From the NCBI RefSeq assembly GCF_003334785.1, contig NZ_QOWV01000004.1: a stretch of 64,000 nt of DNA, one strand, 5' to 3'. The first letter of the stretch is position 1, and every line of letters begins with the position of its first letter. This document shows, in pieces, positions 30,091-36,848 of this stretch. Source of the DNA: Escherichia coli. Its GTDB lineage: Bacteria; Pseudomonadota; Gammaproteobacteria; Enterobacterales; Enterobacteriaceae. A model generated the notes under the pieces. The model searched no databases and was not told the origin of the DNA. It saw nothing but the letters and a program-made list of their open reading frames with translations. A program made the translations under genes and the position numbers.

Positions 30091-30354
30091 ATGAAAATCA
30101 AAACCACTGTTGCTGCATTAAGCGTACTTTCTGTTCTCTCTTTCGGTGCATTCGCTGCCGACTCCATTGATGCTGCACAAGCACAAAATCGTGAAGCAAT
30201 CGGGACCGTATCCGTAAGTGGTGTGGCGTCTTCGCCAATGGATATGCGTGAAATGCTGAACAAAAAAGCGGAAGAGAAAGGCGCAACGGCCTACCAGATT
30301 ACTGAAGCTCGTAGCGGTGACACCTGGCACGCTACGGCTGAACTGTACAAATAA
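30091..30354 (+). CDS. yhcN: Small periplasmic stress protein (YdgH/BhsA/McbA-like, DUF1471), 87 aa
   Basis: ORF 30040..30354; start trimmed to ATG at 30091 (MKIKTTVAALSVLSVLSFGAFA...). Confidence 0.8.
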   Translation: MKIKTTVAALSVLSVLSFGAFAADSIDAAQAQNREAIGTVSVSGVASSPMDMREMLNKKAEEKGATAYQITEARSGDTWHATAELYK

Positions 30355-30381
30355 ACCCTCATCGTCTTGTCCGACGATATT

Positions 30382-30407
30382 GCCCCCGGTTCGGGGGCTT
30401 TTTTTTG
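30382..30407 (+). terminator. Rho-independent terminator after yhcN
   Basis: gccccc-ggttc-gggggc followed by eight T. Confidence 0.6.
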
Positions 30408-30409
30408 CG

Positions 30410-30682
30410 CTAATGACGAACATTAAAACGCAAATGCCCTTCCAGCTCTTCCTCTGCCTCATCAAACAGCAATATTAACGCGCCAAAACGGCGACGCGTT
30501 TTCTCTCCCAGATGAACAAATTCAATCTCAAGTGGTAGCGGCAGGACATCGTTCATTAACACATCCCATAGTGAGTCGAGATCGCGTACCTTATCTTTCG
30601 CCAGACCAAAGGTTTGGCTAAAGTCACGATAAAAATCCTCCTGACTCTCAATCTCATCAAAATCAAAGGTATAAATATTCAT
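30410..30682 (-). CDS. yhcO: Barstar-like (RNase inhibitor family) protein, 90 aa
   Basis: ORF 30410..30682 minus; small acidic protein; family assignment from recalled YhcO annotation. Confidence 0.75.
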
Positions 30683-30773
30683 CTGTTGCCACCGTCACGT
30701 TTCGCGGCGAGTTCTGCCGTGCATCGCTAAGTATAGCCATGAAAAAACCGACGCTTTTGGCGTCGGTTTTGAC

Positions 30774-32741
30774 TTAACTATCGGTCAACGCATGTTGATA
30801 CTTATGGAGCATCCCCGCCAGCCGATTTACCGGTTCCGTCACCTGCGGTGGCGCTTGCCAGATGCGTAGCTTTTCCTGGTAGATTTCCAGTTCTTCCAGC
30901 AACTGGCCAAAGTACCGACGACGTTTATCATCGCTACGGGCAGATATCACATGGTCTGCTGTGCGGCGCATTTGTCGGTGAAACGCCGATAAATCCTCGT
31001 TAACCGGGATCGGTGCATCACGCAGGCGCTGGTGCGCGATAATCATCGTCAGCGCCAGGCGAAATTTCGGCAAATCCCCTGGGAACTTATTCATCAGCAA
31101 AAACAGCTGCTGATAAAGTGCCGGGAGGTGGTTCTCTTTACGACGTGCCACATTGGTAGTCATCGCGGAAACAGCGGCAGAAACAAACTGATTAAGCAGT
31201 ACACGTCCGGTCCTGTCGCGCGATTTATCCCGCACCAGCAAAATAACGGTGAACGCGAGCACACAGCCGACGATTTGCCCTAATGCGCTGTCGAGAAACT
31301 GACTGAAATGGAAAGTCATCGGGTTATCCAGCACGATAATATTTATGGTGCTGGCCAGTGCCCCCATCGAGCCCAGTCGCCGTTTCTGTACTTCTATACC
31401 GAGGAAGAATCCCAGCACTGCCAGGCTAATGCACAGCAGCAACATGCTCTGTTGGGTATTAGGGATAATCACCAAAAAGTAGAGCAGCCCTAACGGCAGC
31501 GCGGCCAGCGTCCCGTAGATAAAGTCGATCGCCACCATGCGTGGATTCGGCAAACGCATTGCCAGTGACGTCACTACCGCAATCATCACCATTGCACCAC
31601 TGCCGGAAGTCCAGCCCGTCCACAGCCAGAAAAGCGTGCCCAGAATGCAGGAAAGTGTGGTTCGCCAGAAGTTAACCATTGCATGATGACGTTCGGCTGA
31701 CTCTACTTTTACTTCCGGTTCGCCTTGCAGGATCTCTTCTTCGGTGGCGTTGATTTTTGTGTTACTGATAACGCCGCGCTTGAGAAGCTGATAACGCGTT
31801 GCCGCCGCGACCCAGCTATAAATGGTGACAGGCGTTTCCCGTTCCCCGGTCCAGGCGATAACTCTCCGCAGGCGTTTGAGCTGCTTGTGGACGTCCTGCG
31901 CGGTTTCTACCGGCGTGTCAAAAAATTCGCGGAAAGTATCAGTGATCAATTCCGGGCGCGTATTCTGAATAAGATAAGTTTCGCAGGATTGGGTAATCAG
32001 CGTCAGCGATAGCGTATTGATCGCTTTTAAACGTCGATTGGCCCGCGCCCAGCGGGAAGATTCCATATTCAGGTTGCTGCGCATGCCTTGTAGCGCCGTG
32101 GTGCGTCGCACCAGGTCGCCCCAGGCTTTATCGACAACTTCACCATCGCCATGCTTGATACAGAGTTGCATTAATTGATATTGCGCGACCAGCAAACTTT
32201 CCAGCTCTCGATCCACTTCTTGTTTGATCGATCGCGGAGAAAAGAGCAAATCCGCCATAATCGCACACACAATACCGATAACGATCTCGCTACAACGTTC
32301 GACGGCAAACTGCGGCGTAAGCAATGGTTCCGGCTGAATGGTGATCACAATGATCAGCGCGGTATAACCGGCCAGCCCCCACGCATACGAGTTTTCTATT
32401 CGTACCAGCGAGGATATCCAGGTACAAAAACCGGCCCAGATACAGCACACCAGAATCATCAATAATGGTGCGCGGATCATCGCAATGATGATCACCAGTC
32501 CGGCAATACAGCCAATAAATGTGCCGATGATGCGCAAAAAGCCACGATAGCGAATAGCGCCAGAATACGGTTCACCTCCCGCAGCAAAGGCCGGACCGGC
32601 GGCAACAATCGCCGCTGTCAGTACCGCCCAGCGTGGCGTTTCCAGCTGGAAGTGAAAGCCAACAAACAGCGCCAGTACAATGGCGGTCGCCAGTTTTACC
32701 GCAAAGCGAATATGTTGGTTAGCAATGGAGAAAATACCCAT
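30774..32741 (-). CDS. aaeB: p-Hydroxybenzoic acid efflux pump subunit AaeB, 655 aa
   Basis: ORF 30774..32741 minus; two hydrophobic blocks. Confidence 0.9.
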
Positions 32742-32746
32742 CGTGA

Positions 32747-33679
32747 TTAACCAAACTCACGCAGGCGATGGGCCATTTTACGGAAGAACGAATCCTGGCT
32801 TTCGTCGCGATCTTGTTTGCCAGTGACCACCACTGTAGCAGTGGTGCCCGCAGGCCAGATGTTCTCTTGCTGGTTGTCGAGACGAATACGAACCGGAACA
32901 CGTTGCGCAAGACGCACCCATTCAAGGTTAGAGTCTATAGTCGCCATCCCTTTGTCGTCACGCGTGCTGCTGGCGTTGGTGACCCCTGCGGCAACACTAT
33001 CAACAGTCCCTTTCAGCACTTTGTTACTGCCAAGCGGCGTGATCTCTGCACGATACCCCGGACGCACCCCTTCCAGCTTAGTTTCTTCCATATAGGCCAG
33101 TACATAGAAGGAGTTCTGTTTCACCAGCGCAACCGCCGTTGATCCTCGAGTAATAAACTCACCGGTATAGACGTTGAGGTTGGTCACCCAGCCATCTGCT
33201 GGCGCGCGGATCACCGTGCGTTCAAGATCCAGTTTTGCCAGATCGCGGGTCGCCTGCGCTTTCGCTAACTGATGCAGAACCGTTTGTAGTACGTTGTTGG
33301 CCTGGTCGATCTCTTCGCGAGACATCGCCTGCACACCGAGACGGTTACGACGTCCGGCCTCCTGGCGTTTCTCCTGTGCCAGTACCTGATAATAAGCAAC
33401 ATCGGCTTGCGCTTCCTCAAGCGCCTTTTGATAGCGCGGCTGGTCGATGGTGAACAGTATCTGTCCTTTTTTCACCAGCTGGTTATCATGAACATTCACC
33501 TGGGTAATGAGTCCAGAAACGTCCGGCGCGATCGCAACGACGTCAGCGCTAAAGCGCGCGTCACGCGTCCAGGGGGATTCGGTGTAATAGACCCAGGCAT
33601 TAAAAATTGCGATGAAGGCCAGAATGACTAATACGACCGTGATGGCCGTACGGGAGAATTTTCTTATTAGTGTTTTCAC
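32747..33679 (-). CDS. aaeA: Efflux pump membrane-fusion subunit AaeA, 310 aa
   Basis: ORF 32747..33679 minus; N-terminal TM then HlyD-like region. Confidence 0.9.
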
Positions 33680-33686
33680 TTCAACC

Positions 33687-33890
33687 TCAAACGAACAGTC
33701 GCGATATCAAATAAAACAAGCAGCAATAGAGCGCGGTGTTGAACAACGCCGGATGCCAGACAAAGTCGTAGATACCTGTTGGCACAAGTACCCGGCGCAC
33801 CAGCCAGAAAATCGCCAGTGATAAAAGCAATTCAAAAAATATCGGTGGGAAGGACAGCCCAAACACCACGATAACGGGAAACAGACTCAT
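33687..33890 (-). CDS. aaeX: Small membrane protein AaeX, 67 aa
   Basis: ORF 33687..33959; start trimmed to ATG at 33890 ([14 protein letters not shown]...). Confidence 0.75.
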
Positions 33891-34072: not shown

Positions 34073-35002
34073 ATGGAACGACTAAAACGCATGTCGGTGT
34101 TTGCCAAAGTAGTTGAATTTGGCTCTTTTACCGCCGCCGCCAGACAGCTACAGATGAGCGTTTCGTCCATCAGTCAGACGGTATCAAAACTGGAAGATGA
34201 GTTGCAGGTAAAGCTGTTAAACCGTAGCACACGCAGCATTGGCCTGACCGAAGCCGGTAGAATTTACTACCAGGGCTGCCGTCGTATGCTTCATGAAGTG
34301 CAGGATGTTCATGAGCAACTGTATGCCTTCAATAACACCCCCATCGGGACGCTACGCATTGGCTGTTCTTCAACTATGGCACAAAATGTTCTCGCCGGGC
34401 TGACAGCCAAAATGCTGAAAGAATACCCAGGTTTGAGCGTCAATCTGGTTACCGGAATTCCAGCCCCCGACCTGATTGCCGACGGTCTGGATGTGGTGAT
34501 CCGCGTCGGCGCGTTGCAGGATTCCAGCCTGTTTTCCCGCCGTCTGGGCGCGATGCCAATGGTGGTGTGCGCCGCGAAAAGCTATCTCACACAATACGGC
34601 ATACCGGAAAAACCCGCCGATTTGAGTAGTCATTCATGGCTTGAATACAGCGTGCGGCCCGACAATGAATTTGAACTGATCGCACCGGAAGGGATCTCGA
34701 CTCGCCTGATCCCACAAGGAAGATTTGTGACTAATGATCCGATGACGCTGGTGCGCTGGCTGACGGCGGGTGCCGGGATCGCCTACGTGCCGCTGATGTG
34801 GGTGATCAACGAGATCAATCGTGGGGAGCTGGAGATCCTGCTGCCGCGTTACCAGTCAGATCCACGCCCGGTTTATGCGTTATATACCGAAAAAGATAAG
34901 CTGCCGCTGAAGGTACAGGTCGTGATCAACTCGCTGACGGATTATTTTGTTGAGGTCGGTAAATTGTTTCAGGAGATGCACGGGCGCGGGAAAGAGAAGT
35001 AA
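34073..35002 (+). CDS. aaeR: LysR-family activator of aaeXAB, 309 aa
   Basis: ORF 34073..35002; divergent from aaeXAB; N-terminal HTH. Confidence 0.9.
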   Translation: MERLKRMSVFAKVVEFGSFTAAARQLQMSVSSISQTVSKLEDELQVKLLNRSTRSIGLTEAGRIYYQGCRRMLHEVQDVHEQLYAFNNTPIGTLRIGCSSTMAQNVLAGLTAKMLKEYPGLSVNLVTGIPAPDLIADGLDVVIRVGALQDSSLFSRRLGAMPMVVCAAKSYLTQYGIPEKPADLSSHSWLEYSVRPDNEFELIAPEGISTRLIPQGRFVTNDPMTLVRWLTAGAGIAYVPLMWVINEINRGELEILLPRYQSDPRPVYALYTEKDKLPLKVQVVINSLTDYFVEVGKLFQEMHGRGKEK

Positions 35003-35135: not shown

Positions 35136-36596
<1,461 letters not shown>

Positions 36597-36625: not shown

Positions 36626-36848
36626 GCTGCCGGATGCGGCGTGAACGCCCTATCCAGCCTACGGTTATGTTCCGGTTTGTAGGCCTGATAAGACGCACAG
36701 CGTCGCATCAGGCAACGGCTGTCGGATGCGGCGTAAACGCCTTATCCGACCTACGGTTATGTTCCGTTTGTAGGCCTGATAAGACGCACAGCGTCGCATC
36801 AGGCAACGGCTGCCGGATGCGGCGTGAACGCCCTATCCGACCTACGGT
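36626..36848. repeat. BIME: five REP units in alternating orientation
   Basis: Repeated gccggatgcggcgtgaacgcc(c/t)tatccgacctac alternating with tgtaggcctgataagacgcacagcgtcgcatcaggca; canonical E. coli REP sequence. Confidence 0.85.

Follow-up and report, generated by a model that had tools for sequence, protein, structure and literature searches.

The yhcO gene of Escherichia coli encodes a cytoplasmic barstar-fold protein. Judged from homologous sequences and gene order, it is most plausibly what remains of an ancient barnase–barstar pair on the chromosome, the partner RNase gene having been lost. It is a core gene under purifying selection and is not decaying. The gene and its family assignment were already known; because yhcO is annotated as barstar family and two crystal structures have been deposited (2CX6 and 5F4C), its identity is not new. 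What the present analysis adds is the proposed origin from a tldD-linked barnase–barstar pair, the age of the orphan state, which would date to the common ancestor of two families, and the finding that selection maintains yhcO with an altered contact loop. As far as our literature searches show, this synteny-based origin and the pattern of constraint have apparently not been described before: no paper on structure 2CX6 was found, nor anything joining barstar with orphan immunity. A y-gene thereby becomes a specific question, namely whether its product inhibits barnase-type RNases or has a new partner.

YhcO is a single barstar domain

The yhcO coding sequence is an open reading frame of 90 amino acids with an ATG start, located at 30410..30682 on the minus strand of the window, the 64,000-nucleotide stretch of E. 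coli DNA that was analysed. RefSeq annotates it as "yhcO: barstar family protein", and its product is 100% identical to PDB entry 2CX6 ('hypothetical protein yhcO'). The Pfam profile PF01337 (Barstar) matches residues 1–81 with an E value of 2.4e-9, and BLASTP aligns YhcO with Bacillus amyloliquefaciens barstar at 27% identity over 81 residues (E 2e-6). No NCBIfam model matched YhcO, and the PADLOC models for anti-phage defence returned no family for YhcO and none for the Xenorhabdus RNase described below.

A single-sequence AF2 model of YhcO reached a pLDDT of 68.6 and was replaced by an alignment-based model with a pLDDT of 95.6, which Foldseek matched to 2CX6, the crystal structure of YhcO itself, with a TM-score of 0.99. 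The model has the barstar α/β fold, comprising a three-stranded parallel sheet and four helices. The same search returned 26 barstar chains at E ≤ 1e-3 (TM 0.72–0.82, rmsd about 2 Å) and, besides barstar, no fold at E 1e-3. By profile and fold the whole protein is one barstar domain. The initial annotation had described YhcO as a barstar-family protein and suggested a fold comparison; the comparison gave a TM-score of about 0.8, and the family membership is borne out by both the Pfam profile and the fold. B. amyloliquefaciens barstar (PF01337; PDB 1BRS, 1A19) thus shares with YhcO its length of 90 residues and its α/β fold, although the two are only 21–27% identical and YhcO has no adjacent barnase gene. 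The barstar-like protein of Salmonella Typhimurium in PDB entry 5F4C is the YhcO orthologue, being 77% identical by structural alignment, with the same fold and encoded at the same locus.

The likeness to barstar extends to the residues of the inhibitory face. Both proteins carry the helix-2 motif LD(A/S)LWD: L35-D36-S-L-W39-D40 of YhcO aligns with L34-D35-A-L-W38-D39 of barstar, which places the two aspartates of the DxxxD motif and the intervening tryptophan of YhcO (D36, W39 and D40) on barstar D35, W38 and D39. In helix 4, the acidic residues E75 and E79 fall on the barnase-contact residues E76 and E80 of barstar. DxxxD has been published as the signature motif of the Imm-Barstar family (PMC3482391). 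The contact loop is different, reading Tyr29/Tyr30-Gly31-x-Asn33 in barstar and 'KDKVRD' in YhcO. YhcO therefore belongs to the barstar family by profile, fold and motif, but it lacks the Tyr29-type loop ([YW]-F/Y-G-x-N before helix 2) and its gene does not lie directly downstream of a barnase-type RNase gene, which is the order of a toxin–immunity pair.

The yhcO locus and its transcription

The window is chromosomal DNA of the E. coli K-12 type; its region 29900–30900 matches E. coli MG1655 at 100% and occurs in each of the 5,426 complete E. coli genomes. The gene order is degS, mdh, argR and yhcN (plus strand), followed by yhcO, aaeB, aaeA and aaeX (all on the minus strand), aaeR (plus) and tldD (minus). 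Convergent with yhcO is yhcN (30091..30354, plus; RefSeq), whose small periplasmic product is a YdgH/BhsA-family stress protein. Upstream of yhcO, open reading frames and RefSeq annotation place aaeB at 30774..32741, aaeA at 32747–33679 and aaeX at 33687–33890, all on the minus strand, together with aaeR (34073..35002, plus), the gene for the LysR-type activator of aaeXAB, within the block that extends to tldD. The tldD gene itself (35136..36581, minus; from tblastn and gene tables) is the conserved anchor of the comparisons below; the aaeR-aaeXAB block separates it from yhcO, which is encoded on the same strand 4.5 kb further downstream. The neighbours yhcN and aaeBAX are as the initial annotation had named them, and its remark that nothing nearby resembles a barnase-type RNase also stands, as tblastn of the 64-kb window with three enterobacterial barnase homologues and barnase itself found no such gene (E ≤ 1e-4). 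Two tandem matches to Rfam naRNA4 (CssrE, a REP-derived nucleoid-associated RNA), with scores of 77 and 71 bits, sit just upstream of tldD at 36682–36751 and 36773–36842 on the minus strand.

The spacer between aaeB and yhcO in E. coli is only 91 bp long (30683–30773) and holds a terminator and a promoter-like element. The intrinsic terminator of aaeB (30742..30770, minus), identified by RNA folding and as an inverted repeat, has an 11-bp stem (AAAACCGACGC/GCGUCGGUUUU) that lies inside a U-run extending two further bases, directly after the aaeB stop codon. Folding of the RNA from 30683–30790 (minus strand) predicts a hairpin with a free energy of −39 kcal/mol (z = −4.3). Because of this hairpin, yhcO should be insulated from the aaeXAB transcript. 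Downstream of yhcO, a GC-rich hairpin at 30382..30398 with a T-run on the plus strand lies between the convergent genes and is the predicted yhcN terminator, while the terminator scan placed weaker terminator-like sites for yhcO at 30359–30379 on the minus strand.

A C at −13 before the −10 element is the typical form of a σS promoter. Between the aaeB hairpin and the yhcO start codon, 47 nt upstream of the ATG, the sequence CTATACT (30730..30736, minus) provides TATACT with a C at −13 and so resembles the σS −10 element of a putative yhcO promoter; a generic σ70 promoter scan did not report it. Such a reading fits the reported RpoS dependence of yhcO expression in O157:H7 (PMC2907692). A rapid acid shift induces yhcO together with yhcN (PMC2270276), and LldR activates yhcO in a study that calls its function unknown (PMC10272880). 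With a σS-type promoter of its own, yhcO would be expressed chiefly in stationary-phase and stressed cells.

yhcO is an intact core gene at a fixed locus

All 5,426 complete E. coli genomes (5,426 of 5,426) carry yhcO at a DNA identity of at least 95%. For a broader comparison, one genome was taken per species and the best 80 of 239 confirmed loci were kept; two tiny contaminant contigs were removed, leaving 78 loci, all from Enterobacteriaceae or Erwiniaceae. They represent Escherichia, Salmonella, Citrobacter, Klebsiella, Enterobacter, Kluyvera, Buttiauxella, Kosakonia, Cedecea, Erwinia, Pantoea, Mixta and other genera, and since only the best 80 of the 239 loci were kept, Yersinia, Hafnia, Pectobacterium and others were not directly covered. 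The two discarded contigs are a 241-bp scaffold filed as Corynebacterium lipophiloflavum (L057), with a yhcO of 100% protein identity, and a 422-bp contig filed as Hydrogenophaga intermedia (L081), with a yhcO of 71% protein identity beside the end of aaeB; both are almost certainly enterobacterial contamination of those public assemblies.

In all 78 loci from the best 80 of 239, the gene order is tldD-aaeR-aaeXAB-(aldH)-yhcO-yhcN-argR-mdh, and yhcN is syntenic with yhcO in each of the 77 loci whose context reaches beyond yhcO. No barnase-like gene lies within 8 kb of yhcO in any of these 78 species. The yhcO reading frame is intact and full length in every one of them, and its median pairwise dN/dS is 0.166 (78 orthologues from the best 80 of 239 loci), compared with 0.031 for argR, 0.052 for tldD, 0.088 for aaeB and 0.141 for yhcN. 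Constraint on yhcO is therefore weaker than that on argR, tldD and aaeB and similar to that on yhcN. As yhcO is intact in every related species checked, it presumably still does something.

The spacing around yhcO varies between genera. An aldehyde dehydrogenase gene of about 484 codons (aldH) stands between aaeB and yhcO in 64 of the 78 species (for example at L019:6500-7951), and its stop codon precedes the yhcO start by roughly 20–65 nt (loci L019–L091), so that co-transcription of aldH and yhcO may occur in most genera. The gene is missing from Escherichia, Salmonella, Klebsiella, Pseudocitrobacter and two Erwinia species. Next to yhcO on the other side, many genera have two tandem genes of the yhcN family (YdgH/BhsA-like; for example L009:6330-6975, L010, L011 and many further loci), where E. 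coli has one. The aaeB–yhcO spacer of E. albertii is enlarged to about 790 bp (L014:7212-8000) and contains some four tandem REP/BIME-like repeats, the translations of which show a recurring 'LIRPT..CKFNIMQFPCRPDKRSASG'. An RNase remnant was considered for this gap and rejected, the sequence being tandem REP-like repeats with no gene fragment.

The examined paired-type relatives adjoin secreted RNases

Searched exhaustively, a set of 1.84 billion representative proteins yielded only 112 clusters of YhcO relatives at E ≤ 1e-3. Full-length relatives of 30–47% identity share a near-invariant "FGxNLDALWD". In each of the 11 relative clusters whose context was examined, a PF00545 RNase gene lies immediately upstream of the barstar gene, which either overlaps it or starts at most about 20 nt downstream. 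The partner RNases keep the catalytic residues of barnase, the Xenorhabdus enzyme being 61% identical to barnase over 100 residues, and they carry an N-terminal hydrophobic signal or anchor, which indicates that they are secreted enzymes. The 11 examined relatives are thus real barnase–barstar pairs. Two cysteines are conserved in the Gram-negative barnase homologues (in 'NLC' and 'NYxCG') and absent from Bacillus barnase, which suggests a disulfide suited to a periplasmic or extracellular life. Among the metagenomic relatives, a 255-residue protein (P0214) has its barstar domain at residues 173–251, fused to an N-terminal region of 170 residues.

The position of these pairs is informative. 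In six lineages (Xenorhabdus, Proteus mirabilis, Pragia fontium and the loci L005, L006 and L095) the pair lies downstream of tldD and on the same strand, either immediately after it or with one or two genes in between, and the series reads yhdP, CN-hydrolase, tldD, RNase, barstar. Pairs in Erwinia, Pantoea and Duffyella occupy other sites. The tldD-linked pairs of Xenorhabdus, Proteus mirabilis and Pragia fontium thus have the same upstream anchor, in the same orientation, as yhcO, and, its orthologue group aside, YhcO has no closer relatives than the paired barstars (36–53% identical). They differ from YhcO in having both an adjacent signal-peptide-bearing barnase homologue and a [YW]FGxN loop. 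The paired barstar nearest to the YhcO clade is itself tldD-linked: the Xenorhabdus barstar, which like YhcO has an acidic C-terminal helix, is 44–48% identical to enterobacterial YhcO and 51–53% identical to YhcO of Erwinia and Pantoea. Two 4.08-Mb Proteus mirabilis records that hold tldD, RNase, barstar and pmbA (NZ_OL790811.1 and NZ_OL790812.1; L097) are filed as 'plasmid unnamed' and are evidently chromosomes.

Since the outgroups have tldD-linked pairs and E. coli has yhcO downstream of tldD on the same strand, yhcO appears to be what survives of such a pair. We propose that its ancestor was the barstar gene of a chromosomal pair, next to a gene for a secreted barnase-like RNase, and that other Enterobacterales still carry this pair downstream of tldD. 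Most simply, the common ancestor of Enterobacteriaceae and Erwiniaceae lost the RNase gene and retained the barstar gene, which became a core gene transcribed on its own and kept by purifying selection. The aaeR-aaeXAB block, in most genera followed by aldH, now stands between tldD and yhcO where the RNase gene vanished, and the synteny comparison shows the aaeXAB efflux operon filling the site that the barnase-like RNase gene occupies in outgroup genomes. The initial annotation had offered a remnant of a lost toxin–immunity pair as one of its two explanations. The lost pair gains support from the pairing of all 11 examined relatives, six lineages being tldD-linked, while the notion of a mere relic does not agree with a dN/dS of 0.166. 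Its suggestion to look for a toxin gene beside yhcO in other genomes gave a divided result, with none at the 78 strict orthologues and one at all 11 of the next-closest homologues.

Invariant inhibitory residues and an altered contact loop

D36 and D40 are invariant in the 45 members of the family alignment. The YhcO orthologue alignment has 29 invariant positions; those conserved at 100% in the 77 distinct sequences include L35, D36, L38, W39 and D40 in helix 2 and R64, R65, G67–L69, L71–F73, E75–E79, G82, L84, F86 and N87 in the C-terminal half. At these C-terminal positions the paired relatives are only 15–88% conserved. The N-terminal third and loop residues 26–33, in contrast, are free to vary among the orthologues. 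The pattern in the loop is the reverse of that in the paired relatives, which keep [YW]-F(95%)-G(93%)-x-N(98%) and with it the equivalent of barstar Tyr29, whereas in YhcO orthologues the loop is variable and never has Gly, and Asp replaces Asn in 86%. Compared with the paired relatives, the orphan clade is without the Tyr29-type piece of the barstar interface.

Possible targets of YhcO

We rank first, with low confidence and at a probability that we put a little short of even, the reading that YhcO is a fixed stand-alone protective inhibitor whose likeliest targets are barnase-family (N1/T1) RNases arriving from outside the cell, because this requires no new assumption about the role of the conserved motif. 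YhcO would still work as barstar does, as a one-to-one protein inhibitor of an RNase, with an acidic face formed by helix 2 (D36, W39 and D40) and helix 4 (E75 and E79) pushed into the basic, phosphate-binding active-site cleft of the enzyme so as to plug it. The invariance of these acidic inhibitory residues is in keeping with such a role, and Imm-Barstar proteins are specifically tied to barnase-like toxin domains (PMC3482391). Candidate targets would include Rhs/T6SS effectors with a 'microbial RNase' tip, since Salmonella SPI-6 is predicted to encode PAAR-Rhs-'Microbial RNase' effectors together with Barstar immunity (PMC10469887). Barnase homologues are also common in other Enterobacterales. 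Of 2,713 barnase homologues found in all, the best 120 include sequences named from Serratia, Xenorhabdus, Erwinia and Pseudomonas. If YhcO does protect against RNases delivered by Rhs or T6SS systems, it would be a fixed, species-wide resistance gene against one class of toxin; if it does not, it would be a case of the re-use of an immunity protein. The analysis gave no supporting evidence for a target of the EndoU type.

Several observations count against a role in blocking foreign RNases. Orphan immunity genes of polymorphic-toxin systems usually lie in variable arrays beside toxin loci and differ between strains. Like yhcO, these genes (cdiI, rhsI and T6SS immunity genes, including Imm-Barstar; PMC3482391) have no cognate toxin, but yhcO is a single fixed core gene set among housekeeping genes, with no toxin locus or array, and it is neither strain-variable (5,426 of 5,426 genomes) nor rapidly diversifying (dN/dS 0.166), which is atypical for that class. 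All orthologues have lost the Tyr29-type contact loop. The structurally characterized CDI toxins exclude the barnase subfamily (PMC9086364), and tblastn with a barnase-like domain found nothing in 50,697 phage records and no match on an enterobacterial plasmid; the only plasmid matches came from Bacillus, Clostridium, two other Gram-positive genera and the two mis-filed Proteus chromosomes. Moreover, bacterial expression hosts do not survive active barnase unless they also express Bacillus barstar (PMC8625414), which means that chromosomal yhcO does not protect at native levels, although low yhcO expression in the face of an overproduced enzyme could explain this failure. Erwinia sp. JUb26 and Pantoea coffeiphila retain yhcO (L085 and L083, respectively) alongside a separate, complete RNase–barstar pair, so YhcO is not simply redundant with a canonical barstar. 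A type II antitoxin was also considered and rejected, as there is no adjacent toxin, the protein is a single barstar domain and the partner RNases of its relatives are secreted.

These same observations lend some weight to a second, possible but less probable explanation, in which the inhibitor was repurposed: after loss of the RNase, the barstar scaffold would have been kept for a conserved endogenous partner acquired later, such as a basic RNA- or nucleotide-binding protein of the σS or acid stress response, with YhcO acting as a housekeeping regulator. A core gene with fixed synteny in two families and with purifying rather than diversifying selection would be expected of such a protein, and its retention beside a complete pair in Erwinia sp. 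JUb26 and P. coffeiphila, the lethality of barnase to expression hosts without co-expressed barstar, and regulation by RpoS, acid and LldR all point the same way. So does the loss of the Tyr29-type loop while C-terminal-half positions became 100% invariant (15–88% in paired relatives). Deletion of Salmonella STM3363, which encodes a barstar-like protein, increases swarming in pure culture (PMC4534456), a phenotype that hints at an endogenous role and speaks against foreign RNases as the target; STM3363 is probably the yhcO orthologue, an equation that rests on locus numbering and the domain description. We would entertain, tentatively, a domesticated barstar whose scaffold was retargeted to a conserved endogenous protein as the Tyr29 loop was lost and the R64–R65 and E75–E79 surface became fixed, and which now serves as a σS-controlled regulator. 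If so, YhcO would be the first protein of the barstar fold to serve in housekeeping and not in immunity, and a long-standing y-gene would gain a function. Against repurposing, no partner is known or predicted, the stronger C-terminal conservation may follow merely from the smaller span of taxa in the orphan set, and the C-terminal-half sequence stretch is already present in the paired Xenorhabdus barstar. The invariant DxxxD, furthermore, is exactly what plugging an RNase active site needs.

It is improbable that YhcO acts in trans on a barnase-type or other RNase of the cell's own that is encoded elsewhere in the E. coli genome. The inhibitory motif is strongly constrained, as this would predict, and rearrangement can split pairs; the region is indeed rearranged relative to the outgroups, in which yjgA-pmbA follows the pair. 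However, blastn in distant mode with an enterobacterial RNase–barstar cassette found nothing in the 5,426 E. coli genomes, which is weak evidence given the low sensitivity of that search, and no protein from Escherichia, Salmonella or Klebsiella is named among the best 120 of the 2,713 barnase homologues, a result likewise of limited sensitivity. E. coli K-12 is not known to encode a PF00545 protein. For Erwiniaceae, trans-inhibition of an unlinked RNase was rejected, as every barnase homologue there adjoins a barstar gene of its own.

That yhcO is a functionless relic yet to decay, for which one may cite the absent partner gene and a literature on E. coli mutants in which no growth phenotype was found reported, is very improbable and is effectively refuted by the intact full-length reading frames in 78 of 78 orthologues across two families (from the best 80 of 239 loci), a median dN/dS of 0.166 close to the 0.141 of yhcN, the 29 invariant positions and the regulated expression of the gene.
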